This document shows positions 4,150-62,630 of a DNA stretch of 64,000 nucleotides, in pieces. Position 1 is the first letter of the stretch. Each line of letters opens with the position of its first letter. Source of the DNA: a virus (lineage: Duplodnaviria > Heunggongvirae > Uroviricota > Caudoviricetes); the IMG/VR virus record IMGVR_UViG_3300025133_000019; one strand, 5' to 3'. Both the position numbers and the translations under genes were made by a program. The notes beneath the pieces were generated by a model that was given only the letters and a program-made list of their open reading frames with translations, was not told the DNA's origin and did not search any database.

Positions 4150-5700
4150 ACTATATCAAAGTCCTGGCCTGAAAAATTCTTTTAGACCTCAGAGAAATCT
4201 GGGGTCTAATTTTGTGTCTGTGGCAGAATGGATATGGACCGGAATGCGAATCCGGGGGAATACCCAATGCAAGTTTAGGAGGTTCCTTTGAATTTAAAGT
4301 ACAAAAAGCGCTTCAACTTAAAAATCCTTGTCGCTTTTTAAATATTGGTTATACTAAAAATATGGAGGTAACGAAAACTTACCAGTTTCGAATTTATCCG
4401 AACAAAGGCCAAGTAGTTTTAATGGCCCGTCATTTTGGATCAACTCGGTTTGTTTGGAACTATTTTCTTGCGCAAAGAAAGGACACATACCTTAATAGTA
4501 AAGGGGCACTAAATTACCATACCAACTCTAAGGCACTAACGTCCTTAAAAAAAGAGCCTGATTTTGAATGGCTTAAAAAAGTAAATTCCCAATCATTACA
4601 AGCATCGCTAAAGGATTTAGACACAGCCTACGGTCGGTTTTTTAAAAAGCAATCTAAGTTCCCCAACTTTAAATCTAAACACCACTCAAAAAACAGTTTT
4701 AGATGCCCCCAATCAGTAACCATAATAGAGGGTAAGTTAAGCCTTCCTAAATTCAAAACAGGGATTAAAATAAAACTCCACCGTGAGATAATAGGAGAAA
4801 TTTTATATGCCACGGTGACACAGAGACGAGCGGGGAAAATTCTTTGTGTCAATTACTTGTCAAGAAAAGCACCAGTCTCTTCCAAAGACAAGTAAACAAG
4901 TCGGTATTGATCTTGGAATTAAAGACTTAGTGGTATGTTCTGATGGGGTTGTTTTTAAAAACCCAAGGATAACAAAGAAACACGCCAAAAAATTGTCATA
5001 TGAACAAAGACAGCTCTCTAAAAAGAAAAGGGGTTCCGGCAAACGAAATAAACAAAAAAGAAGAGTCTCCTTGGTTCACGAAAGAATAAGAAACACCAGG
5101 AAAGATTACTTGCACAAAACCTCCCACAAACTCATAAGCGAAAACCAAGCTGTTGTGATTGAAGATTTGAACGTCGTAGGTATGATTAAAAATCGTTATT
5201 TGTCAAAATCAATTGCAGACGCTAGTTGGGGTGAACTAACTCGTCAACTGGAATACAAGTCTGCATGGAATGGAAGGCAGTTTGTCAAAATTGACAGGTG
5301 GTTTCCCTCCTCAAAAACTTGTCATGTTTGTGATTTCATAAAACAGGATCTCATTTTAAATGATCGTGAGTGGCAATGTCCTTCATGCAATTCTTTGTTA
5401 GATAGAGATTTGAATGCTGCTAAAAATATCCTGAAACAAGGACTAAAGATACTGTCTGGTTCTGGAGTCAGACACAAAACAAAAACCCGTGGAGGCGTTT
5501 GCATGAGCAGAGTCTATGAAACGGGAAGCTCAAAAGCTTTAGCTTTGGGTAGCTCATGTGATGTCCATTTCACCAGAGGTCTATTTTTCTTTGTAAACTT
5601 ATATGTTTACAAACCTGTAAAAAGTAAACTTATAAGTTTACTTTTTATAAACAAGTTGATTAACAAAATGTGGTGTGATAACATTGTTTTATAACGCACA
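4150..5700 (+). mobile_element. IS200/IS605-family TnpB-only element, copy 1 (approximate boundaries)
   Basis: TnpB ORF plus an upstream hairpin (AGACCTCAGAGAAATCTGGGGTCT, ~4186-4209). A 3' palindrome GTAAAC-TTATAT-GTTTAC and AAAGTAAACTTATAAGTTTACTTT lie in the RE/omega-RNA region. Confidence 0.5.
4362..5694 (+). pseudogene. tnpB: TnpB (OrfB) RNA-guided nuclease, split by a +1 frameshift near 4845-4870
   Basis: N-term MEVTKTYQFRIYPNKGQ; RuvC-I GIDLGIKDLVV; RuvC-II VIEDLNV; zinc finger CHVCDF...CPSC; RuvC-III RDLNAAKNI. The frame switches in a G4A4T3 homopolymer region, so this is either a genuine pseudogene or a sequencing error. Confidence 0.75.
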
Positions 5701-8988: not shown

Positions 8989-9037
8989 CACGTACCCCCT
9001 TCTTTATGTTATAGTAGTATAACTAAAGGAGAAATTG

Positions 9038-9479
9038 ATGGAACAAGGACTATGGTTAAAAGAAGTTGGAGAGGAAGATAATTACTATCCGTGTGGTACT
9101 TCATTAGGACTGGATGATGATTATGCTTTTTTTTGAGAACTTTATGCCAGAGCATTTTTTTGGGGTCCACGGGCTAGTAAAATTAGAGAAGGAATATCAT
9201 TTAATGGGTTCCGATGATGGGCACTATTGGACTAAAGCCATTCTAGACTTGGAAGAGGTTATAGGTTTGAGGATAGCCTTGAAGAATTTGAACTACCTCT
9301 TAGAGAAGAATCCGGAGAAATGGAGATTCTCAGGCACTCTCATAGAGTTTCCTTTCAAAGTCTATACTAAGTATGACAAAAAGAGTGCTCATCATATTAT
9401 GGCCATAGAGATAAACGATAAGAAAGTTTCTTTTAGTCAATACTGGTTAAAAGATTTGATTAAAGCCTTGGTATTTTAG
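9038..9479 (+). pseudogene. hypothetical gene with a frameshift in a T8 run (~9120)
   Basis: SD AAGGAG and the ATG at 9038. A 30-aa N-terminal piece is followed by the 9114-9479 ORF in another frame. Confidence 0.35.
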
Positions 9480-9482
9480 TTG

Positions 9483-9797
9483 CTATTCTGGCTTATCTCT
9501 TTCTAAAACTTCTTCCCATTTATCTAGCTTTTTATACATCATATCTTTGAATTCTGAATCACGGAATTCTAGTTGACATAATATAGAACTGGCAACAATA
9601 ATTACATCACAAGCTTCTTGAAGAATATCTTCTCTGCTTGTGGTTTTGTATGTGCAGCCAGGAGCTTTGTCTAGGGTTAGCAATTCTTGAGCTAGCTCAC
9701 CTGTTTCTTCTGTAAGTTTAGCTAATCTTTGCATAAGATTTTTATTGTCTTTAGAAGTGTTTAGCTTTATTTTATCAGCAATTCTTTTTAAACTCAT
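9483..9797 (-). CDS. MazG-like nucleotide pyrophosphohydrolase domain protein
   Basis: EExGE-type motif LTEETGELAQE in an all-helical ~100-aa protein. Confidence 0.55.
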   Translation of the reverse strand: MSLKRIADKIKLNTSKDNKNLMQRLAKLTEETGELAQELLTLDKAPGCTYKTTSREDILQEACDVIIVASSILCQLEFRDSEFKDMMYKKLDKWEEVLERDKPE

Positions 9798-9827
9798 ATC
9801 TTATTGTATGAATTTAGACCGTAAAAG

Positions 9828-10358
9828 TCAAGATATTTTAGAGAAGACGGACACCATATGTCTTCCTTCTTGCTTGGTTTCTTCTTGGACAGCAATATCA
9901 GAGGTTCTCTCTTTTATAGTATTTAGAAGCTCTGACCCTAAATCCTTATGAACAATACCTCTCCCTTTAAAAGTTATTACCACTTTGACTTTATTACCAC
10001 TCTGAATAAATTTTCTTAAATGATTGAGTTTAGTATCTAAATCGTGGCTACCAATATTAGGACCCATTTTGATCTCTTTGGTAACTAATTTAGGTTGAGG
10101 TTTGACTTTCTTTTTCTGATCGAATTTGAATTTTCCGTAGTCTATTATTTTAGCTACTGGGGGATTAGAGGATGTTGACACTAGAACTAGGTCTAGACCT
10201 CTGTCTCTAGCCATAGATAATGCTGTTTCTCTGTCTATAACTGAGTTTGTTCCTGATTCAGGGTCTACGACTCTGAGCTTTGTTTCCTTGATGTGTTCGT
10301 TAATATTAGCTTTCTCTTCTCGGGAGTTCTCGTTTTGAAGCCTTTTTCTTTTTATCAT
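9828..10358 (-). CDS. infC: translation initiation factor IF-3 (bacterial type)
   Basis: N-domain INEHIKETKLRVVD...SVIDRETALSMARDRGLDLVLV; C-domain KEIKMGPNIGSHDLDTKLNHLRKFIQSGNKVKVVITFKGR. Confidence 0.85.
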   Translation of the reverse strand: MIKRKRLQNENSREEKANINEHIKETKLRVVDPESGTNSVIDRETALSMARDRGLDLVLVSTSSNPPVAKIIDYGKFKFDQKKKVKPQPKLVTKEIKMGPNIGSHDLDTKLNHLRKFIQSGNKVKVVITFKGRGIVHKDLGSELLNTIKERTSDIAVQEETKQEGRHMVSVFSKIS

Positions 10359-10412
10359 GAATGTTAATTTTTCTCCTTGTATGTTATAATATGCAATAAT
10401 GAATCAAAACAA

Positions 10413-10451
10413 GCCGGATTAGCTTAGTTGGCTAGAGCGCACCGTTCAATA
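10413..10451 (+). tRNA. 5' half of a class II tRNA-Leu(CAA)-like gene: acceptor GCCGGAT, D-arm, anticodon stem CACCG and loop TTCAATA
   Basis: A canonical 5' half folded by hand. The remainder is displaced by an insertion, and the matching 3' half lies at 11868-11925. Confidence 0.5.
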
Positions 10452-11867
10452 AAATCATGACATTTCCTGACATCCCCTTTAGGCGGTGCAGGATAGTCTA
10501 GATTCTATTTCTTGTTTCATAGACGAGGCCATTGCCTCGTCTCCACAAGCGTTACTTCCCCCAGAACTTGAGGTAGGATCGCAATGATCAAGGTAATAAT
10601 TTCTTAGATTATAACTGGCGTTTAAGTCTCGACAGAGACTTAAACCACACTCAGTACAATTGTAAACTCTTTCACTTAATTTTAATTTATCCTTCTTGTT
10701 TCCACAAGAAGAGCAAGTTTTAGAGGAAGGAAACCATCGGTCCACGACCATAAGGTCTACTACAAACCATTTAGATTTGTACTCAAATTGTCTTCGTATT
10801 TCACCGAAACTAGTATCAGCTAAACACCTACTTAACCTACGATTCTTAATCATATTCTTGACTGCCAAATCCTCGATGACCAAAGACCTTGGTTTGGCTT
10901 TCGCCAAGGTCGTAGTCATCTTATGGATTGAGTCTTTTCTAATGTTTGAAATTTTGTAGTGAAGTTTAGCTAATTTAGATGCTGATTTCTTTTTACTGTT
11001 AGAATTTTTTTTCTTTCTAGAATGCTTCTTGGAAAGTCTTTTAAGACTTTCCAAGTTAGATTTTAAAGCTTTAGGGTTCTCAAACCTCATAGAGTTAGAA
11101 GCTACAGCCAGTTCTTTAATTCCTAAATCAATCCCAATTACTTCTGAAGAAATCCCAAACTTAGGAAGAAAAAGAATTTCTTCTTCAACTTGGATAGCAA
11201 CAAACCACCGTCCCGCACGACTAGAGACTGAAGCCGAGAGAATTTTGATTCCTCCTTCTGGGAAGTATCCTTTTTCTTTAAGCTTTAGCACTCCTAGTCT
11301 AGGAAGCTGAATGTAACCATTACTAAGGACCTTAATGGTCCCAGTAAGTCTGAAGCTTTTCTTAGAATCATGCTTAGATTTAAACTTAGGAAATCCAGGG
11401 GCTTCAACCTTGGATTTCGCCCTCCTGAAGAAGGATTGGTAAGCTTTGTCCAAGTCCCTAAGAGCCTCCTGCGGAGCACATTTAGAGACTTGATACATCC
11501 AAGGATAACAGACTTTCTTTAAAGAGTTAATCTTTCTGTGGAGAGAAATTGCATTTAGTTTCTCTCTGGCTTTTAGCTCTTTTTCAAGCTCTCCTCTTTC
11601 TTTTCCAGAAACTGAAGCTATTTTTTCTTTTAGGATTTTAATTTCTGAGTAGTCTTTAATTTTGAGGTTTAAACCCCAGTCATAAGTGAATCGAGTCGAG
11701 CCACAATGCTGTTCCAGCAGTTGTTTTTGGCTCTTGTTAACCTTTAATTCAGTTTTATAGCCCCGGTTTCTAGTTTTCACAAAAACTAGCTAAAATCAAC
11801 TGATTACGATAAAATTAGTAATTAGTTAGATTTATCACTATTTTGTATGAAAGGTCAAGATTACCAA
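10452..11867 (-). mobile_element. IS200/IS605-family TnpB-only element, copy 2, lying between the two tRNA halves (approximate boundaries)
   Basis: Intact tnpB runs 11780-10479. The RE side abuts the tRNA anticodon loop and the LE side abuts the tRNA variable arm. Confidence 0.55.
10479..11780 (-). CDS. tnpB: TnpB (OrfB) RNA-guided nuclease, intact
   Basis: N-term YKTELKVNKSQKQLLEQHCGSTRF; RuvC-I GIDLGIKELAV; RuvC-II VIEDLAV; zinc finger CSSCGN...CTECG; RuvC-III RDLNASYNL. Confidence 0.85.
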   Translation of the reverse strand: MKTRNRGYKTELKVNKSQKQLLEQHCGSTRFTYDWGLNLKIKDYSEIKILKEKIASVSGKERGELEKELKAREKLNAISLHRKINSLKKVCYPWMYQVSKCAPQEALRDLDKAYQSFFRRAKSKVEAPGFPKFKSKHDSKKSFRLTGTIKVLSNGYIQLPRLGVLKLKEKGYFPEGGIKILSASVSSRAGRWFVAIQVEEEILFLPKFGISSEVIGIDLGIKELAVASNSMRFENPKALKSNLESLKRLSKKHSRKKKNSNSKKKSASKLAKLHYKISNIRKDSIHKMTTTLAKAKPRSLVIEDLAVKNMIKNRRLSRCLADTSFGEIRRQFEYKSKWFVVDLMVVDRWFPSSKTCSSCGNKKDKLKLSERVYNCTECGLSLCRDLNASYNLRNYYLDHCDPTSSSGGSNACGDEAMASSMKQEIESRLSCTA

Positions 11868-11925
11868 TCAACTGTTACTAACCCTGGTAAGGGTGAGGGC
11901 AGCGGTTCGATCCCGTTATTCGGCA
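11868..11925 (+). tRNA. 3' half of the split class II tRNA: variable arm ACCCTGGTAAGGGT, T-arm AGCGG-TTCGATC-CCGTT, acceptor ATTCGGC plus A
   Basis: The acceptor 3' strand pairs 7 of 7 (one G-U) with GCCGGAT at 10413-10419. Confidence 0.5.
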
Positions 11926-11990
11926 TTTTACTTTTCTTATTCTCTTTCTAGAATTGCTTGTTGCGCCTTATACTTGAGATCTTCCAGTTT

Positions 11991-12663
11991 CTACTGAGCT
12001 TCTTCAATTATTTCTATAGCTTTCTCTGGATTTTCGTGTGTCATTCCTCTAGGAAGTTTTACGGTTACGTGAGACGTTTCTTCAGCCGTAAACGTAAGAT
12101 CTATTTCAACTGGGCTAACCCGTTCCTTATTAACAGGAAAAGCTAGATCCCTGAAGGCTTCAATAATTTCCTCAAAATTTTTCCTTTCAGAACTACCAGG
12201 ATTGTAAAGATTCAGAGGATTATAATAATGAGAAGAGCTAAGGAAGCCGTTGATATCCTCTTTTAGTTGGTCTATTCTTTCGTCCCTGAGATTTAGATTA
12301 TAGAATAGGGGATTAGAGAGGTCTTCCTTTTCTTGGTTGGGATAGACAATTTCAATATGAGCTATATCTTTGGGAGATACGGTAATAACAACCGGGTTGC
12401 TTGGAGGAGCTTCAAAATGAAATCCGTCGTCCCAATCGCCCATACTAACTCTTTTATAGGGTTCGTCGGAATTGTAGGTAACGTCCTCTAGTTTACAAGG
12501 ATTTTCAGCCCACAAGTGCATTTCTATTCAGCCATATAGACCGTAATCTCTAAAAGATTCCCTTGTTATCCAAAATTGTGTGGGGGTTTCGAGTTTTTCG
12601 GTAGTTATAAGTTTCCTTATAGCTTCTTCGATTATTTCTTGCTGATATCCTGTAAAGTTCATT
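11991..12663 (-). CDS. hypothetical protein with an in-frame TGA at 12528-12530
   Basis: SD AAGGAG precedes the ATG at 12663. A 44-codon segment, then TGA, then the 176-codon ORF (ATG at 12521, no SD), all in one frame. Confidence 0.4.
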
Positions 12664-12749
12664 TTTCGTCTCCTTCACCTTTATTCTATTCTAACATTAA
12701 CCCACTGTCAACCCTTGTTTTTGAAGGACCATAGTTTTTTATTTTTAAG

Positions 12750-15700
12750 GTGTTTTATATGGATTCTGGTTATTTGTATTTTAAAGTTGATATAGACAGT
12801 AATTTGTCGAGACTAAATTTCTTGGCAACAAGAGATATTCTTAATACAGACGATATTCAGGAGTTTATTGATTATTTAGTAAAAGAATTGAAGAACAATG
12901 CTAATGTAGATCAAGACGACAGAAAAAAGATTACTTTGTGGTTAAATCGAAAGAAGCAAGGTCTTAAAGATTATTTTAAAAAGAATATCAAGGGAGACAG
13001 CTCTGACTTTTACAAGAAAGTGGAGCGAGTAACTCATACCCCCAGTGATGCTCCAGAATGGTTGCTATCAAAAATAGAAGAAAATCCTAGGTATCTTCAA
13101 GAAGAGGAAGTTTATAAGGTAAGGGCTCCTCTGAAAGCTGATACCGCTTTAGTAAATAAAATTAAGCACATTATAGACTATTTAGTGTGGTATTTAGACA
13201 AAAATCCGACTAAATCTTTGTTAAACACAACTTGGAAACAAGTACACGAAGGCATTAAAAAGTGGGAGAAGAGTTTTGAAGGAGAAGAGACCAGTGAACT
13301 TCTTCCTGGAGAAAAGGTTATTCTTACTTTAGGAGAATACTTTTGGGTTGAGCTGACTGACAAGGATTCTCTTAAAAACGAAGGCTCTAGAATGGGTCAC
13401 TGTGTAGGGGGATATTGCAGCGCAGTTACCTCTGGCGACATGAAAATATACAGTCTAAGAGGGCAGGGCAATATTCCAATAGCTACTCTAGAATTAGATT
13501 ATCATAGGGACACTTTCAAGCAAGCTAAAGGCAAATATAATAAGCCGGTGAGCCATAAGTACTCCTCGCAGATCATGTCTTTACTTAATTTTTTGAGAAG
13601 AGACTTCGGGTTATCCGATGACTTTAAACATACTTCTATTTTTAAACACGAAAAAAAGTTCTATAGACTAGAAAATAAAGTTCCTCTTAATGGCCAGCTC
13701 ATCGAGCCAGAGGACGTGACTCCAGATCTTATTGAGGAGTCGTTGTCTAGAAATCCTCAGTTAGCTTATTTTATTGAGAGTGAAGAGCTTGTTGATAAAA
13801 TGTATAATCTTCCTTACGCTGCGGTATCCGATATGATACCTTACTTACATAAGGCTGATCCTAAGGACGTAGTGAAGTATGTGGATGCTGCGGTGTTTTC
13901 GGATTCTCACGAAGTTTATAGAAATGACCCTACTATTTATAAAAAAGTTTTAAAAAATATGGAAGAAGACGAGTTTCATTTAGTATTGCCTGGATTACCC
14001 GACCATGTCAGAAATGATCCTGCTGTATGGGGTCCTATGCTATTAAAAGAGGGTTTGCAGCCACTTCAATACGTGGGATCTAAGTCTATCATAAAGGGAT
14101 TTAAGTACATAGATAAGTTTATTGAAAAATACGAAATAGTAGAGCAAAAGAGTTGGTCTGAACTAAGGTGGTTAGCCGAGAATATAAAGCCTAAGGATGT
14201 AGATAGACTTATAACAGATACTAACTTTAAAAATTATTTTGACCCTTTAGATTTAGCACGGATATTTGATGACCAGCGAGATTTTGTAAGCGCCTTACTT
14301 TTAAATTCTTACTATATAAATGAGTTTAAAGATATAGTTAAAGTAGAGCCTCTTAGATTCTTGTTGAGGATGAGTGAATCTCAGATTTCATTGGATATAA
14401 AGGTCAGGAATTCTATTATAACCGAGATATTTCCGGTTTTAGACGATTCTCTGTCCAAAGATCCTCGCCCTCTATTTAAAAACTTTGCTTACAATAGAGA
14501 TTCTGTAGCAGCAAAGTATATGGATAGAATCATAGATTCTAAAGAATCCAGAGTGAGAGATAAAATAGTTTCCCTGATTGAAACAGGCCAAGAAAATTAT
14601 TTAGAATTAGGGAGTAATGCCCGAGAGCTGCTGGAGAAGAGTAATATCAGTTCTGACGCTGTAAAACGCTCTTTACTGGAGTATTCTGAAACCACCTCGG
14701 TTAACCAAGATACTCAGACTCTCAATTTTAATCTATTATCAGAAGCAATAGATTCGGAGGTTATAGATTATTTTAAAAAGATGTTTTTAGAAGGAGATCT
14801 CATAAAAGTCAGGAGTCTTGTTTATAACTTGCCTATAGTTATAATTACTTCTGTGTTTGATCAGGATAACGAAGTACTGGATCACATTGCCAACTCTATA
14901 AGCCAAGCATTTTATGATATAAACACATATCAGTTTGTATATATGATTACAAATTTACTGGAAGATCCTGCTAGAGAAAGGCGTTTTGTTTTAAAATCTG
15001 TTAAGCCCATACTTCTTAGAGAGGGTATTTCAGGACTAACAAATCCAGATCCTTCGGTATCTGAGAATTGGGAGCATCTTAAAGATGATCCTCAAATAAT
15101 AGAACTAGTTAAAAACAATCTTAAATCTTTGGAGGACAAAGACCTTTTTAAGGTTCTTTCTTCTTTTCAGGGCACACATAATTTCATAACTCCAGATACA
15201 CTGAAGGATTTGGAAAGAAGGTTTGAGGAAAACGAAGAATTTTGGCTTAGGCCATTCAGGGCAAATTCAGAAGTTCAGATTTTATATGCTGATCTTTTAA
15301 AAGAATCTCAAAAGATATCAGATCTCCTTGTAGCTACCTGGAGCAAGGGAAATTCCGATTTAGGGTTTTTACTGGAGTTTAATAAGGGGTATCCTGAAAA
15401 TGTGAGGGAAGTTATTATAAAGGATTTAAGTCTATGGGGTAGTTTGCCTGAGTACGAGCTAGAAAATTTTTATTACCGAGATATTTACATGGACGCTGTA
15501 AAATACGACAGTAATAATGTCATGAAAACTCCACTCGAATATAACAGCCGTTTCATGTTTCCTAGTGATTTAGATGATGAGTCTATTCAAATAACATATG
15601 ATGTATTCAAGACAGAAGTAGCCAAGAAAACTGGAAGCCTGTTTAGGTTTAAAAACTTGTTTTCCGCATTTAATGCTAAATATAGCGACTTCAAGAAGTA

Positions 15701-27322: not shown

Positions 27323-27457
27323 ATTGGTAGCGTACACTAATTGGTAAGTGAACAGTCTGGAAAACTGTGGACGGTAAAGCTTTGGAATACCACACCTTCG
27401 GGATGAGGTTTTAAAGTGATAAGTCTTAGAAGTTCAAGTCTTCTCGCTACCGTATAT

Positions 27458-27545
27458 GGAGGGTTGTCCGAGTGGATTAAGGAGCCAGCCCTGAAACCTG
27501 GAGATCGTGAGTATAAGATCCATCAGTTCGAATCTGATACCCTCC
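27458..27545 (+). tRNA. class II tRNA, probably Ser(UGA), with an irregular anticodon loop
   Basis: Acceptor GGAGGGT/ACCCTCC, T-arm ATCAG-TTCGAAT-CTGAT, 3-bp D stem, long variable arm. The anticodon stem closes only as 4 bp (CCAG/CTGG), leaving an 8-9-nt loop containing TGA. Confidence 0.55.
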
Positions 27546-27555
27546 TTTACAAAAT

Positions 27556-27641
27556 GGAAAGTTGAATGAGTCTGGCTTAAATTGCTTCGCTGCTATCGAA
27601 GATGCTCGCAAGGAACGGGGGTTCGAATCCCCCACTTTCCT
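27556..27641 (+). tRNA. tRNA-Ser(GCU)
   Basis: Acceptor GGAAAGT/ACTTTCC, anticodon stem CTTCG/CGAAG with loop CTGCTAT, T-arm GGGGG-TTCGAAT-CCCCC, long variable arm. Confidence 0.75.
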
Positions 27642-27690
27642 CTAATTCGAGTCTTTTATACTTCTTTTAAGTAGAACCTTACTAAGGAGT

Positions 27691-28467
27691 ATGATGTCTA
27701 CAAGAAAAATAAGTATAGAAGAGTTAAGGGATATAGTGGCCAACTCCACTGGAGTTAAAAATTTAATTCAGAATTTAGGTTTGTCTTATTCTATGAGGTA
27801 TAGGAAAAGGTTACATCTTTGGCTAAGAGATTTTCAAATAGATATATCCCATTTTCTTCCTGACGAAGATTTTAAGTCTGTCTATTCATTACAAGAGATT
27901 TTAGTAAAAAATAGTACCTATACAGATTCCACTCTTTTGAAGAAGAGACTAATAAAAGAAGACATTCTGGAAAACAAGTGCTATATCTGCAATATCGACA
28001 GCATGTGGCAGGGTAAGACTATGGTCATGATTTTAGATCATATAAATGGAGACCATTTCGATAATAGACTGGAAAACTTGAGAATAGTTTGCAGGAATTG
28101 CGACGGTCAGCTAGATACTTTTTGTAGGGGAAAACCGATTCCTATTAAAAAGACTAAAAGGATTTCAAAAGCTAGACTAGTGTGTCTTAAAAAAGGTTGT
28201 AACAATTTGATTCTTTCCTACACCGTTATATATTGTTCTAAGGAGTGTTTTCCTAATAGATCTATGGTCAGACCCTCCCAAGAACAGCTTCAAGAAGACC
28301 TTAACACATTATCTTGGACAGCCGTAGGTAAAAAATATGATGTCAGCGATAACGCAGTTCGAAAATGGGCAAAGTCGTATGGAATAACACCGCCAGAAAA
28401 CCATACTAAAATAGTCTATCAAAACACTTCAGAGGAAGTAAGAGAGATCAATTCAAAGATTGAGTGA
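27691..28467 (+). CDS. HNH homing endonuclease
   Basis: HNH motif LDHINGDHFDNRLENLRIVCRNC and a C-terminal HTH. It sits immediately downstream of the tRNA genes. Confidence 0.7.
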   Translation: MMSTRKISIEELRDIVANSTGVKNLIQNLGLSYSMRYRKRLHLWLRDFQIDISHFLPDEDFKSVYSLQEILVKNSTYTDSTLLKKRLIKEDILENKCYICNIDSMWQGKTMVMILDHINGDHFDNRLENLRIVCRNCDGQLDTFCRGKPIPIKKTKRISKARLVCLKKGCNNLILSYTVIYCSKECFPNRSMVRPSQEQLQEDLNTLSWTAVGKKYDVSDNAVRKWAKSYGITPPENHTKIVYQNTSEEVREINSKIE

Positions 28468-28779: not shown

Positions 28780-29190
28780 ATGATTACTGTATTTTTAGGC
28801 GGAACTTTAGGCGATGACTGGAGATCCGAGTTTGTAGAAAGTCTTGGTAGTAATGTAAACCCGTTCAATCCTATTGTAGAAGATTGGAATGAAGGGGCAC
28901 AAAAAATAGAAGAGCAAAAGAAAGCTACCTCCGATTATAATTTATACGTAATAACTCCTAGTATGAAAGGGGTTTTTTCGATTTGTGAAGTTGTTGATGA
29001 TTCTAACAAGAAACCCGAGCAAACAATTTTTGTACCTCTCTTTGAATACAACAACAAAAAGTTTCTAAAAGATGAGTGGAAGTCTCTAGTAGCTGTAGCT
29101 AAAGTAGTGGATAAAAATGGAGCTTATGTGTTTTCGACACTGGAAAAGGCATCTACCGCTTTAAATGGCTTAGGTAAATTAGCAAAGTAA
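28780..29190 (+). CDS. hypothetical protein (possibly nucleoside 2-deoxyribosyltransferase-like)
   Basis: Starts MITVFLGGTLGDDW. The family call rests only on this weak N-terminal resemblance. Confidence 0.4.
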   Translation: MITVFLGGTLGDDWRSEFVESLGSNVNPFNPIVEDWNEGAQKIEEQKKATSDYNLYVITPSMKGVFSICEVVDDSNKKPEQTIFVPLFEYNNKKFLKDEWKSLVAVAKVVDKNGAYVFSTLEKASTALNGLGKLAK

Positions 29191-42713: not shown

Positions 42714-42865
42714 AAAATATGCCGAGGTCGTATAATTAGGAGAGGTTAACCTCTCAGGACACTATCTGGATTATAGAGGTGGCGGTGGGACCCCGTTCCT
42801 TGGCTCTAAAAAATAGGAAAACGTAGTAAACAGAAGTAAACGCTAGTAATAGCGACGTAATTCGG

Positions 42866-42951
42866 TGCAGGATAGAGAAGTCTGGTATCTCGGGTGTCTC
42901 ATAAGCACTTTACTTGTAGTGAGTACGAAGGTTCGAATCCTCCTCCTGCCT
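42866..42951 (+). tRNA. class II tRNA-like gene with a CAU anticodon (Met-type loop CTCATAA)
   Basis: D-arm GAGA/TCTC, anticodon stem GGTGT/GCACT, variable arm TACT-TGTAGTG-AGTA, T-arm GAAGG-TTCGAAT-CCTCC (one A-C mismatch), acceptor TGCAGGA/TCCTGCC (T-C at positions 1-72). Confidence 0.45.
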
Positions 42952-42954
42952 TAG

Positions 42955-42990
42955 AAAAACCCTGTGATAGACTCGTATCACAGGGTTTTT
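42955..42990. terminator. bidirectional rho-independent terminator
   Basis: AAAAA-CCCTGTGATA-GACTCG-TATCACAGGG-TTTTT. Confidence 0.7.
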
Positions 42991-43060
42991 CTCTTCCTAT
43001 AAGTTTGATAGTTATTTAGTAACCCGTTGGTTCGAATCCGGACCCTGCAAGGAATATTAA

Positions 43061-43912
43061 ATGACACAAGAAAGAGAGACTCTGGACGAGTACAAAGAAA
43101 ATCCCAATCACTGCGAAGAGTGCGCAAAACCCATACTTTTAGAAGAAACCTCTATTTATTACCTGAGAGCAACAAGATTTTGTAGTAATAAGTGTATAAG
43201 CGACTTTGTTTTAAAAGAAAACAGAGCTGGGAGCACCAATGGCGGGAGGGTCATGGCGATAAGATCACGCCAAGAAGCTTTATTTAAGTATTACGAGAAT
43301 CCTAAAGAATGCAAACACTGTGGCTCTGTTATTCAGGTTAAGGGGAATCAGAAACTGGGTGAGGTTAGGGCTAAGAAATTTTGCTGCAAATCTTGCGCAG
43401 CTAAATTTAATAATAGAGCTTATCCAAAAAGGAGGGGTATTTTTAGTGGCTTCTGTAGGGAATGCGGAGATTCTGTTTCTTACACGTATAATCTTAAAAG
43501 TAAAAGTTACAGCAAAAGAAAGTATTGTATAAAATGCCTCTCGGAAGTAAGATCTAAGTTGGCCCGAGCGAACCAGTCGGTGAGGTATTCTAAGCCTGAG
43601 TTACCTAAAAGAACCAAGGGAAGTCTGAAGGTTAACTCCAAATATTGGGTTCAATACAGGTCTAAAATACAGAAACATGCTAAACAATCTCTTTTAAAAG
43701 CAAACCTCCCAAAAGTTTGTGCTTATTGTGGATATTCCTTACATGTTGACACCTGCCACATTAAAGATGTAAAAGATTTTCCTGATACAGCTACAGTAGA
43801 GGAAATCAATTCCATGGATAATTTAGTTTACCTGTGCAAGAACCATCAGTGGGAGTTTGATAATGGGTATATAACCAAGGAAGATATTTCCCGAGATCTT
43901 GACACCCCTTAA
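43061..43912 (+). CDS. zinc-ribbon-rich HNH endonuclease
   Basis: Multiple CxxC pairs. C-terminal HNH motif DTCHIKD...NLVYLCKNHQWEFDNG. Confidence 0.6.
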   Translation: MTQERETLDEYKENPNHCEECAKPILLEETSIYYLRATRFCSNKCISDFVLKENRAGSTNGGRVMAIRSRQEALFKYYENPKECKHCGSVIQVKGNQKLGEVRAKKFCCKSCAAKFNNRAYPKRRGIFSGFCRECGDSVSYTYNLKSKSYSKRKYCIKCLSEVRSKLARANQSVRYSKPELPKRTKGSLKVNSKYWVQYRSKIQKHAKQSLLKANLPKVCAYCGYSLHVDTCHIKDVKDFPDTATVEEINSMDNLVYLCKNHQWEFDNGYITKEDISRDLDTP

Positions 43913-48146: not shown

Positions 48147-48300
48147 AATGCCTAGAAAAATATTTTTTCCAGAAACACCTGATAATTCTGTTAGTATAGA
48201 GAGTCCAGAGATGGACTTTAGACTAATAGTAGCGTATCGTAGGGGAAAGTTCCCCACTTTTAACACTGTTGTTTATAGTGGGTTCACAACAGCTAACTAA
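48147..48300 (+). CDS. family E N-terminal fragment (51 aa)
   Basis: SD AAGGAG. Sequence PEMDFRLIVAYRRGKFPTF is homologous to the N-terminus of the 45677 gene. Confidence 0.4.
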
Positions 48301-50030
48301 AAATCTTGATATTTACAGACAAATCCTGTAAAATCAATTTCAATTGAAACACCTGACAATTTAATTATATAAATCGCTTTAAACATTCAAATGAATAAAG
48401 ATCTAACACTAACCCTAGAATCCAAGATCCCAAATCTTGGAGACACATATCAAAAACTGGAGTCATACTCCAGTTTTTACGGTCATCTGGAAAGAATTCT
48501 TTTTCAAATTCTAGTAAAAACCCCTGTAATTGATTCTGAGTTCAGAAAAAACTTGAAAAAAAAGTTTCACTCGTAAATATAATATTCAAGCAAGAATTTT
48601 TAATGCGCTTTGGATTCAAGTTAAAGGTAAATTAGATTCTTTTAAAGAGAGCAAGAAAAGGGAAGAAAAACAACTAAAATCTAAAATAAAAAATTTAAAA
48701 TCTGGCATCAAAAAAGTTAGTAAAGAGCTTGATAACAAGAAAAGAAAACATGGTAAAGGATTCATTAAGCTAAAACCTCATGAAATTAAGCTCAAAAGAC
48801 AAAAGCTTCATTTCCAGAACTCAAAACTAAACAAACTAGAAAATTTTGTTAAAAACAAGAATCTAACATTTGGCGGTTATTCCTTTTTCTTAAAACAGTA
48901 TACTAACCCGGAATATATAGAAAATCATGATTCCTGGTTAACCGAGTGGAAAAGACGGAGAAACAACCACTTTTACTTCATAGGAAGTAAAGACGAGGTC
49001 AGCCAAAATCAACATTCCCAATATAATTTAGATGAAACTGGATTAGAAACACTTAGATTAACTCTTCCTTATCACGTAGAAAAAGAGTTAGGAAAACATC
49101 TTGTTATCCCGGTTAAATTCAGTTCTCACCTGGAAAAGAAAAACGAAAGATACTACAATTACTTTCAGGAAGCAAGAAATCAAAAAGTAGCTTTAAGTTA
49201 TAATTTTTTAAAAAGAGAAAACGGAGTTTGGTATGTTCAAGTAACTTTTAGTATAAAAAAGAAAGTTTATGAAAATAAAAATGGATTTATAGGAATAGAT
49301 TTAAACTACGATCTCATAGCTACTGCTAGTAGCAATAGCTCCGGGAATTACGTTGGATTTAAAAACTACAATTTTAATTCAGAAAACAAAACTGCTGGTC
49401 AAACCAAAAATGAACTTTCCCTTATAATTAACGAAATAGTTAAACTAGCAAAACAAGAGAGCCGGGGAATAGTTATAGAAAAACTGGATTTCAGTAATTT
49501 GAAATTAAAACCGAGATCCAAAACTACTAACAGGAAATTAAACCTGATTCAATATTCAGTTTTCAGAGTTTTATTGGAATCTAGATGCCTAAAACAAGGT
49601 GTACAATTAAAGTTAGTGAATCCAGCTTACACCTCGGTCATAGGAAAATATAAATATGCTAAAAGGTATGGGATAAATTCTCATACCTCAGCAGCATTAG
49701 TAATAGCCCGAAGGGGCTTTTACTCGGCTAAAGAGAGATTACCTGTTCAGTTGACCGATATCCTCCGCAGAGGAGAAGAACAAAAATTTGAAAAAATTTT
49801 TAGATATCGACACCACTGGAGCGCTTGGAATTATCTCTCTAAAAATCTTGAAAAATGTTTGAAGTATGTTATAATGATATACGGAGATTCTTTTAATACT
49901 GGAAATAATTTTAGAATTACGGAAGGAATTAACATGAACTATCTAACCTCAAGATTTAATCCTGAGAAGAAGTCGTTCCTTCTTAGGTATCACGGATTTT
50001 CTGCGAATCAGGAAACGCCATGATTTTTTT
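48301..50030 (+). mobile_element. TnpB-like insertion element, copy 3 (approximate), splitting a family E gene
   Basis: Flanked by the N- and C-terminal family E fragments. The TnpB stop lies within ~8 nt of the right boundary. Confidence 0.5.
48391..50023 (+). pseudogene. divergent TnpB-like protein lacking the zinc finger, frameshifted in an A8 run (48555-48562)
   Basis: Frame 1 runs 48391-48576 and frame 2 runs 48557-50023 with no ATG. RuvC-I IGIDLNYDLIA; RuvC-II IVIEKLD; VNPAYTSVIG without Cys; RuvC-III-like INSHTSAALVIARRG with the Asp replaced. Confidence 0.55.
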
Positions 50031-50032
50031 GA

Positions 50033-50268
50033 ACGGTTTGGTTTACGCCTGATTTTAAGAGTTGTTCTGACGGTTTCAATGAGCAGGAGTACTATGAACA
50101 CAGCTCCGAATCAACGGGCAGAGAAGGTTTAAAAGAGACTATTCAACATCTTACCAGAATAGACCCTAGTGAATGGGAAGTCGTGTTACACGACAATTTA
50201 GTAGAGAAGTACGAAACTATGTTGAAATTTATAAAAGACCATAATTTATCAGTAAATTCAAATCATTA
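50033..50268 (+). pseudogene. family E C-terminal remnant without a start codon
   Basis: EWEVVLHDNLVEKYETMLKFIKDHN aligns with DWEVVLYDTMELKHQALIEFIQSKG of the 45677 gene. Confidence 0.4.
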
Positions 50269-55615: not shown

Positions 55616-56638
55616 ATGAGTGGATTCCGAAAATTTAATTCTATAAAAGAAGTTGTCCTCCAAAAATACCTTGATCGAGTCTACAGAGAAGGTTATGGAG
55701 ACGAGGTTTTTGTGGTTCTCGAAAAATACCACGGAGCCAACTTCGGTGTAATTGTAGACGACCAAGGGGTCAGGTGTCAATCCAGAGAGCTGTTGTTGGA
55801 AGAGGATGCCAGCTTCTATGATTACGAGCACATACTAGAAAGAGACCGTGAAAAATTCAAACAGGTATTCGATTTCTTTAAATCTTCTTTTCAAGGAGTA
55901 AACTCTATAATTTTATACGGGGAATTAGTAGGCGGGGTCTATGACCATCCCGAGTATAACAAAAAAATAAGGGACAACATAATTCAGCACGAAGTCCACT
56001 ATGCTCCTGACACGGATTGTGTATTCTTTGACATTTTTATTAGAGGGGATAGAGAACACTATCTAAATCACCTTGACGTAGTTACTATGATAAATTCTTA
56101 TGAGCTTAAATACTCAGAAGTTCTGTTTGAGGGAAGTCTTAAGGATTGCTTGGAATTCTCAGCTAAAACTAATGGAGACCCTTCTCTTGGGTTCAAGAAG
56201 TGGGGTTTACCCGAGATAGCTGACAACATCAGAGAGGGTAATGTAATAAAACCATTGAAATCCCTATTTTTCAAAGACGGTAGAAGGATCATTTTTAAGG
56301 ATAAAAATGATAAATTCAGAGAGACCTTGGCAAGAAAGAAGCCGGATCTGGGGGCCACTGAGAGATCAAAGGAAGCCAGAGAACTGATAAAGGACTTTGT
56401 CACGGAAGCTAGGCTCAAAAGTGTTTTAAGCAAGCATTCCAGGTTTAGTCAAAAGGATTTTGGAAAGCTAATGGGACTTTATATGAAAGACGTGATTGAA
56501 GATTTTAGAGATCATTATCCCGATGTTTTTTCTGATACCTCTAAAAAAGAAAGAAGCTCTATCACAAAACATGCTACAGGGTTAGCACAGCGTCTTATAA
56601 TGAGCAGTTTTGCAAAAATTGTAGACGGAACTTACTAA
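55616..56638 (+). CDS. Rnl2-family ATP-dependent RNA ligase
   Basis: Motif I EKYHGANFG (KxHGxN) and motif III ILYGELVGG. About 340 aa, matching the T4 Rnl2 layout. Confidence 0.8.
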   Translation: MSGFRKFNSIKEVVLQKYLDRVYREGYGDEVFVVLEKYHGANFGVIVDDQGVRCQSRELLLEEDASFYDYEHILERDREKFKQVFDFFKSSFQGVNSIILYGELVGGVYDHPEYNKKIRDNIIQHEVHYAPDTDCVFFDIFIRGDREHYLNHLDVVTMINSYELKYSEVLFEGSLKDCLEFSAKTNGDPSLGFKKWGLPEIADNIREGNVIKPLKSLFFKDGRRIIFKDKNDKFRETLARKKPDLGATERSKEARELIKDFVTEARLKSVLSKHSRFSQKDFGKLMGLYMKDVIEDFRDHYPDVFSDTSKKERSSITKHATGLAQRLIMSSFAKIVDGTY

Positions 56639-62489: not shown

Positions 62490-62630
62490 GTATAGTAATT
62501 GGTACGGTAGTTCAGCGGTAGAACATCTGGCACAGAGTTCTCGGTTCGATTTTTTGGCCAATTAGACTGTAGGATTGAGGTTATCGGATACAAACCCGAA
62601 AGAGAAAGTTCGAATCTTTCCGGCCCTCTT
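62490..62630 (+). ncRNA. intergenic tRNA-like region with two T-arm-like hairpins (noncanonical)
   Basis: D-arm-like GTTC-AGCGGTA-GAAC, then CTCGG-TTCGAT and GAAAG-TTCGAAT-CTTTC. No full cloverleaf could be folded by hand. Confidence 0.25.

Follow-up and report, generated by a model that had tools for sequence, protein, structure and literature searches.

What kind of gene is interrupted between positions 10,413 and 11,925 of the virus record IMGVR_UViG_3300025133_000019 (Caudoviricetes), and what kind of DNA interrupts it? In the stretch of 64,000 nucleotides (nt) of this genome that was analyzed, which we call the window, two pieces that together resemble a tRNA gene lie on either side of an open reading frame (ORF) for TnpB. 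A first-pass annotation proposed a class II tRNA-Leu(CAA) gene with a TnpB-only element of the IS200/IS605 family inserted into its anticodon loop. Its core idea, two tRNA halves flanking a tnpB-only element, is confirmed by our analysis, as are the outer limits 10413 and 11925; the tRNA, the point of insertion and the family of the element have to be named differently. We think, with good confidence, that the locus is an ordinary insertion of a tnpB-only element of the IS607 family, which splits, and most likely inactivates, a phage tRNA-Thr(GGU) gene and has a predicted guide antisense to the 5' part of that tRNA. From the three options that the annotation had left (a tRNA inactivated by an insertion sequence, an intron-like element, or a TnpB whose guide targets tRNA sequence), it is the first one that gains support.

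The 5' part of the tRNA starts at 10413 on the plus strand and reads GCCGGAT-TA-GCTT-AGTTGGCTA-GAGC-G-CACC, its length of 31 nt being due to a 9-nt D loop. On the other side of the insert, CC-CTGGTAA-GGGTG (11883-11895) provides the rest of the anticodon stem and a 7-nt loop with the anticodon GGT at 11886-11888, and AGCGG-TTCGATC-CCGTT-ATTCGGC-A (11901-11925) provides the T arm, the acceptor 3' strand and the discriminator; CCA is not encoded. The D arm, T arm and discriminator had been read correctly from the start, and the acceptor strands GCCGGAT and ATTCGGC do pair at all seven positions, with one G-U pair. Joining 10413-10443 to 11883-11925 gives GCCGGATTAGCTTAGTTGGCTAGAGCGCACCCCTGGTAAGGGTGAGGGCAGCGGTTCGATCCCGTTATTCGGCA, which ARAGORN folds as a flawless 74-nt tRNA-Thr(ggt) with the anticodon stem CACCC/GGGTG, the loop CTGGTAA and a 5-nt variable loop. 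U8, A14, G18G19, U33 and the G53-T54-T55-C56 motif are all present in it. This class I tRNA-Thr(GGU) cloverleaf is obtained only after removal of 10444-11882 in silico; at the native locus, neither the default mode of ARAGORN nor the Rfam tRNA model reports a tRNA. The break falls between positions 30 and 31, that is, in the 5' strand of the anticodon stem and not in the anticodon loop. The joined tRNA can be aligned without gaps to two genuine tRNA-Thr(GGT) genes of Saccharibacteria, which came from a pattern scan of 185,579 species representatives; the alignment has 57 invariant columns out of 74, and where the acceptor and T stems differ, the changes compensate each other. In a strict scan for split tRNAs at this locus and at 83 related TnpB loci, the sole match was this locus. 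The pairing of two tRNA-Thr halves here is far beyond chance.

The tRNA-Leu(CAA) reading has its origin in the sequence CACCG-TTCAATA, which can be read as a stem strand followed by a loop with CAA. In addition, ARAGORN is permissive towards joins of the two halves: many arbitrary ones pass, and some come out as Leu(caa). However, the CGGTG strand that should pair with CACCG is absent from the right flank (the copy at 10484-10488, once considered for closing the stem, is irrelevant), and position 37, where a purine is expected, would be T. The tRNA includes no more than CACC (10440-10443) of this sequence, whereas TTCAATA is the right end of the element: GTTCAATAAAATCATG, starting at 10444, is the reverse complement of the right end ...CATGATTTTATTGAAC, and its TTCAAT corresponds to a terminus that is conserved in relatives. 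The alleged variable arm, ACCCTGGTAAGGGT, is in fact the perfect anticodon arm of the tRNA-Thr, as both the ARAGORN join and the alignment show. The canonical Thr(GGT) join together with the element boundaries refutes tRNA-Leu(CAA), to which we leave practically no probability. The intron mode of ARAGORN, which permits introns in the anticodon loop only, returned a tRNA-Val(cac) with a 1420-nt intron; it is a poor, forced fold with a mismatched anticodon stem, and we discard it as an artefact.

The boundaries of the element follow from comparison with related TnpB loci, to which we refer by numbers preceded by L. Its ends are conserved in L010, L011, L012 and L020 and in 49 of the 83 related loci. 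At the right end, GAAC with GG directly after it is common to this element, L010-L012 and the same proportion of related loci (49/83). The left flank ends in NGGG at all eleven junctions examined (N is A seven times, T twice, and C and G once each), and a TTAGTAACAGTTGATT-like sequence follows. Here the left junction reads AGGG/ (11885-11882, the slash marking the junction) and the right one /GG (10443-10442), the latter being the complement of the CC at 10442-10443, which also belongs to the tRNA 5' part; counting one copy of GG, the inserted DNA has 1440 bp. No target-site duplication is seen, and no inverted pair joins the two element ends, so that terminal inverted repeats are absent. Near the left end, CAGTTGAT occurs as two direct copies, with minus-strand starts at 11874 and 11802.

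These features are those of the IS607 family, whose members prefer (G)GG as target, invariably have GG at the target site as well as at each terminus, and lack target duplications and inverted repeats (PMC6188088). The family is also described as carrying short direct repeats at its ends (PMC6188088), and in Clostridium IS607 elements both the target motif and the transposon-adjacent motif (TAM) are 5'-TGGG-3' (10.1101/2023.11.20.567912). TnpB homologues number in the thousands. The nearest ones are P0003 (L010) and P0004 (L011), with about 67-70% identity, and P0005 (L012), with about 60%. In L012, the gene directly upstream of tnpB encodes MerR and Resolvase domains, and a serine-recombinase TnpA also precedes tnpB in L015, L016, L018, L021, L028 and L036; the TnpBs of the relatives with a MerR plus Resolvase TnpA directly upstream are 35-60% identical to the one studied here. 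No tnpA or other serine recombinase is encoded in the window. Since the gene is absent here and present upstream of tnpB in relatives, this copy is a non-autonomous derivative. The element thus shares with Helicobacter pylori IS607 and with the IS607 elements and IStrons of Clostridium botulinum and C. senegalense a TnpB with RuvC and zinc ribbon, a MerR-type serine-recombinase TnpA in close relatives, insertion at (G)GG with GG at both junctions, the lack of inverted repeats and target duplication, left-end direct repeats, a predicted omega-RNA that overlaps the right end, and an NGGG motif like the published TGGG TAM. It differs from them by having neither tnpA nor a group I intron and by its position inside a tRNA gene of a phage-like genome. 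The TnpB elements of the IS200/IS605 family (ISDra2, IS608, Geobacillus IS605) also encode an RNA-guided nuclease with a guide derived from the right end, and their tnpB-only derivatives are common, as here. In contrast, they depend on a Y1 TnpA and have single-stranded hairpin ends, and their insertion sites lie 3' of a motif of the TTAC or TTGAT type, with no GG being shared. These hallmarks are seen neither here nor in the relatives, where TnpA is a serine recombinase and the junctions obey the GG rule, and the assignment to IS200/IS605 had to be given up.

The tnpB ORF, which the first-pass annotation had already described as intact on the minus strand, matches three TnpB domains of Pfam (HTH_OrfB_IS605, OrfB_IS605 and Cas12f1-like_TNB) and phrog_506 ("transposase") at 4.9e-101. 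Over 24 aligned sequences, the RuvC residues D218, E303 and D385 and the zinc ligands C356, C359, C375 and C378 do not vary, and this protein keeps all of them, which indicates a catalytically intact TnpB. The approximately 160 nt that precede the right-end boundary are conserved over 18 loci as AGTTC...AACGCTTGTGGAGA-hairpin-TGAAGCAAGAA...AGATTT...GAAC, with a long stem after TGAAGCAAGAA. Compensatory changes are found in 10 of 42 consensus pairs, in a comparison of four sequences only, and the single-sequence fold has a z-score of -3.15. A structured RNA over the 3' end of tnpB, ending at the right boundary and continued by a flank-derived guide, is what is expected of TnpB-omega-RNA homing, and IS607 TnpBs have been reported to use right-end-derived guides with a TGGG TAM (10.1101/2023.11.20.567912). 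Because the scaffold ends exactly at the boundary, the guide would be the next 16 nt or so of flanking DNA. The predicted guide, assigned by position on the TnpB/IS607 model, occurs once in the window and is antisense to the 3' portion of the tRNA D arm, G26 and C27-A28 (tRNA positions 13-28). The option of a TnpB guide that corresponds to the tRNA flank is, by position, also true. The features of the locus are collected in Table 1.

Table 1. Coordinates of the interrupted tRNA gene and of the inserted element in the window.
Feature	Positions	Strand	Description
tRNA-Thr(GGU), 5' part	10413..10443	+	Acceptor 5' strand, D arm, G26, C27-C30; sequence, ARAGORN join, gapless alignment
tRNA-Thr(GGU), 3' part	11883..11925	+	C31, loop CTGGTAA, GGGTG, variable loop AGGGC, T arm, acceptor 3' strand, A73; sequence, ARAGORN, alignment
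Extended -10-like motif TGTTATAAT	10382..10390	+	23 nt 5' of the tRNA start; read from the sequence only
IS607-family tnpB-only element, body	10444..11881	-	1438 bp; left end TTAGTAACAGTTGATT... at 11881, right end ...CATGATTTTATTGAAC at 10444
AGGG target and transposon-adjacent motif	11882..11885	-	Left-end junction; complement of tRNA C30/31-C-C-U33, anticodon stem and loop
Left end	11781..11881	-	101 nt upstream of the tnpB start
tnpB	10479..11780	-	433 amino acids, GTG start, intact frame
Predicted omega-RNA scaffold	10444..10600	-	Overlaps the tnpB 3' end, stops at the right-end boundary
Predicted 16-nt guide TGCGCTCTAGCCAACT	10426..10441	-	After the right-end GG (10443-10442); assigned by position on the TnpB/IS607 model

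A natural pair of vacant and occupied sites gives the junction rule of this subfamily. In L010, a phage FtsH-like gene is followed by a terminator hairpin whose loop contains the element, and a search with this FtsH-like neighbor led to L095, where the neighbor protein is 97% identical and the same intergenic terminator hairpin is uninterrupted. The two loci (L095 5000-5030; L010 2915-2925 and 4285-4300) represent the site of an IS607-type tnpB-only element without and with the insert. The vacant site reads ...CTCTGGGGG/TAAAACCTCAGAGTC, with TAAAACC at the start of the second part, and the occupied one reads ...CTCTGAGGG/TTACC...TTGAAC/GG/TAAAACCTCAGAGTC. The rule is that the vacant site consists of the left flank through NGGG plus the sequence that follows the right-end GG. 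The flank of L010, which equals the guide, matches the vacant L095 exactly and stands there after a GGGG motif; as far as the sequences indicate, this layout is that expected for TnpB homing. We think that the pair is a useful reference for the junction rule and the TAM (GGGG or AGGG) of this subfamily.

The application of this rule to the tRNA locus (left start at 11881, right finish at 10444) raises a problem of one nucleotide. The predicted vacant site, ...GAGCGCACCC/TGGTAAGGGTG..., would give a tRNA of 73 nt with the anticodon arm CACCC-TGGTAA-GGGTG, whose 6-nt loop is 1 nt short and which ARAGORN reports as 'tRNA-???'. The canonical 74-nt tRNA needs both copies of the CC core, that is, removal of 10444-11882. 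An extra assumption is needed: either 1 nt was lost after the insertion, in the G/C run or in the loop, or the gene was already 1 nt short. The first case, a canonical tRNA that was hit and lost 1 nt later, corresponds to a vacant allele with GCACCCCTGGTAA or GCACCCTTGGTAA, and the second, a gene defective before the insertion, to one with GCACCCTGGTAA; the timing of the insertion, the loss of tRNA function and the activity of the guide are inferred. With a predicted site of 73 nt and a 6-nt loop, even precise excision by a recombinase would probably not restore a normal tRNA.

Besides this missing nucleotide, it also weighs against our interpretation that no element-free allele of this locus was found in any collection searched. 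Exact patterns of the 5' and 3' halves in IMG/VR, a gapped junction pattern in the JGI metagenomes, and searches with neighbor proteins and IF3 all gave no vacant allele, and cluster look-ups gave singletons. Exact-protein look-ups did return nine contigs, which come from seven samples; each contig is occupied and matches the window at 100% identity, so that the insertion event itself is not observed. The source samples are JGI 3300008050, 3300006923 and 3300025066, SRR5467136, SRR5701579, SRR3880533 and ERZ27249139. A pattern made of the right end plus its flank, which would reveal recurrent insertion at the same tRNA position, had no match in IMG/VR.

The fact that exact removal of 10444-11882 gives a canonical tRNA might suggest that the insert is an intron (a group I intron, an IStron or another self-splicing RNA) and that the tRNA is still functional. 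Group I introns are common in bacterial tRNA genes, where they are found in the anticodon loop, and they have in common with this locus a long insert near the anticodon. IStrons of the IS607 family exist (10.1101/2023.11.20.567912) and carry tnpB as well. However, the Rfam models of group I and group II introns gave no match on either strand of 9800-12600 at E<=10 and none at the gathering score in the whole window; the group I core, for which the first-pass annotation had proposed a check, is absent. In an IStron, the ribozyme is located at the left end, and ribozyme, tnpB and host gene share one strand, whereas here tnpB is antisense to the interrupted gene and the left end has only 101 nt. 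Moreover, the insertion is in a stem and not in a loop, and the insert termini on the tRNA-sense RNA do not pair (-23.6 kcal/mol versus -19.8 +/- 3.6 for shuffles). We consider a functional, intron-bearing tRNA very improbable.

Nearly the same has to be said of a split tRNA, in which the two halves would be made apart, anneal through the acceptor and anticodon stems and be sealed, for instance, by the Rnl2-like ligase encoded at 55616-56638. Rnl2-type ligases seal nicks in duplex RNA, and the genome encodes one; in addition, the halves sum to a perfect tRNA if they end at C30 and C31. The 5' half might have its own promoter, as TGTTATAAT is possibly the tRNA promoter and may now drive transcription antisense to the omega-RNA and tnpB; a consensus promoter scan did not report this motif, and a -35 match is absent. 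Against this idea, the consensus scan found no promoter-like site ahead of the 3' half, and precise trimming of both ends corresponds to no known bacterial or phage activity. In Nanoarchaeum and other archaea, tRNA halves are also encoded apart, but they have a complementary leader and trailer that form a bulge-helix-bulge for the splicing endonuclease. There is no such pairing here, the co-fold of the insert termini being no better than shuffles, and this genome has a bacterial-type IF3. Since an IS607 insertion fully accounts for the layout, assembly of a working tRNA from separate halves seems to us hardly credible.

Returning to the IS607 insertion, its history is probably as follows. A 1.44-kb non-autonomous element with tnpB and omega-RNA, and without tnpA, would have entered antisense to the tRNA-Thr(GGU) gene at GGG, the complement of CCC in the 5' strand of the anticodon stem. 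A serine recombinase acting in trans would have exchanged strands at GG, leaving NGGG at the left junction and GG past the right end. The tRNA, split at 30/31, would most likely be dead, as nothing that might splice has been recognized in the insert. The TnpB-omega-RNA would then cut an element-free copy of the site (NGGG plus TGCGCTCTAGCCAACT), such as might be carried by a sister genome or by a relative infecting the same cell, and recombinational repair would copy the element back in. Cutting of element-free sites has been shown experimentally for TnpBs of IS605 and IS607. Similar behavior is expected of T4 SegB and other free-standing homing endonucleases of phage tRNA clusters, which are likewise selfish nuclease genes located in phage tRNA regions: when a co-infecting relative lacks the nuclease gene, its allele is cut and the gene is copied in by repair. 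SegB recognizes DNA through protein contacts and sits between tRNA genes, whereas recognition here is predicted to be RNA-guided and the tRNA gene itself is interrupted.

A more ambitious proposal would be that the intact TnpB-omega-RNA is kept as a weapon and not solely for selfish homing, being used for RNA-guided exclusion or cutting of tRNA-Thr(GGU) genes in competing phages or in the host. The guide lies on conserved tRNA-Thr sequence, with NGGG supplied by the conserved CCC of the anticodon stem, and the two Saccharibacteria tRNA-Thr(GGT) genes present TGGG followed by a 16/16 match to the guide. This TnpB is intact while the other two TnpB-like genes of the window are frameshifted, each tRNA locus of the window is adjoined by a nuclease gene, and nuclease action on a phage tRNA region has a precedent in T4 SegB. 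If true, the proposal would describe an RNA-guided counterpart of T4 SegB. Nevertheless, the pattern is matched by only 2 of the 185,579 species representatives, which are unlikely hosts of a 374-kb phage, the flank is absent from other relatives, and a guide equal to the flank is the default of every TnpB element. We regard a role as a weapon as unlikely.

No new mechanism is required by an ordinary IS607 insertion, and we think that the locus is mainly of value for its corrected annotation and as a clear example. The gene entirely escapes the standard tRNA finders, and a plausible "Leu(CAA) loop" turned out to be a transposon end. As the NGGG target and TAM falls on CCC, which is conserved in the anticodon stem of tRNA-Thr, the gene is a natural landing site for such elements, and one that inserts there automatically equips its nuclease with a guide directed at a conserved tRNA sequence. 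The locus also adds to the view of phage tRNA regions as nests for selfish nucleases, with HNH enzymes beside the other tRNAs and TnpB inside this one.

Several relatives of the element are situated within phage tRNA arrays. In L011, which carries the second-closest TnpB (471-537, 1824-1870), the sequence that flanks the right end is a sense-oriented tRNA-Thr(GGT)-like gene of which only the 3' part, starting near position 29, is present, with no 5' part to match it; the short left end is preceded by a degenerate tRNA-Arg(CCT)-like sequence without a variable region. As in the window, the anticodon-stem region is concerned, but the orientation is opposite. IS607-type TnpB elements are also found in the tRNA arrays of large viral contigs in L026 (3741-3765), L085, L024, L058 and L016, and the right end of L026, /GG/TTCGACTCCCTACGGTCCCA, resembles a tRNA T loop and acceptor end. 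The flanks of L011 and L026 could not be rebuilt into interrupted tRNAs, and the vacant sites reconstructed by the GG rule for the related loci gave no other tRNA. General targeting of tRNAs by this TnpB lineage is therefore not supported, the split tRNA being found only at this locus.

The genome as a whole looks like that of a very large phage or a similar element, because its longest contig reaches 374 kb, most ORFs lack homologues, PHROG matches are present and a search of a phage DNA database with 9000-14000 gave no match. The PHROG matches of the window include IF3, HNH endonucleases, RNA ligase and AAA ATPases. IF3 (9828-10358, minus strand) is of the complete bacterial type (IF3_N plus IF3_C) and divergent from the split tRNA, and the RNA ligase (plus strand) is T4 Rnl2-like, with RNA_ligase and T4_Rnl2_C domains and a match to phrog_548 at 1e-57. 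An HNH ORF (27691-28467; phrog_10822 at 2.9e-41) lies immediately 3' of a tRNA-Ser pair (27458-28467 region), and an HNH_2 ORF (43061-43912) lies immediately 3' of a tRNA-Met (42865-43912 region), so that all tRNA loci of the window have a mobile-type nuclease adjacent or inside. The latter tRNA, with anticodon CAT (42865-42952, plus strand; 39 bits with the Rfam tRNA model), has 88 nt and a long extra arm, unusual for the Met/Ile2 type.

A second IS607-type element is found at 48283-50036 on the plus strand, with the left junction TGGG/TTCACAACAGCTAAC and the right end ...CAGGAAACGCCATGATTTTTTTGAAC/GG. Its last 30 nt (right end at 50034) are 90% identical to those of the element in the tRNA-Thr gene, and the similarity stops just past GAAC/GG. 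Its ORF (48391-50023) requires a frameshift at an A8 run at about 48555-48565; the product has the motifs IGIDLN, VIEKLDF and NPAYTS, no zinc ribbon and an altered RuvC-III region (NSHTSAALVIARRG), and it gives no Pfam match and a partial match to phrog_506 at 2.6e-12. It may be a decayed or nuclease-dead relative of TnpB. The sequence ATTGAACGG at 28861-28869, considered as a solo right end, is a chance match. A third TnpB gene, about 43% identical, lies in the region 4213-5694 (plus strand), with its HTH part at 4359-4895, its RuvC/zinc part at 4846-5694 and a frameshift near 4846-4895. Just 5' of it, GTGTCTGTGGCAGAATGGATATGGACCGGAATGCGAATCCGGGGGAATACCC (4213-4262) resembles the 5' two-thirds of a long-arm tRNA; no T arm for it was found downstream, and it may be a second tRNA remnant adjoining a TnpB element. 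Finally, two T-arm-like hairpins on the plus strand, AGAAG-TTCAAGT-CTTCT (27428-27450) and GAAAG-TTCGAAT-CTTTC (62560-62630), are called a tRNA by no tool and may be degenerate tRNA-like elements.

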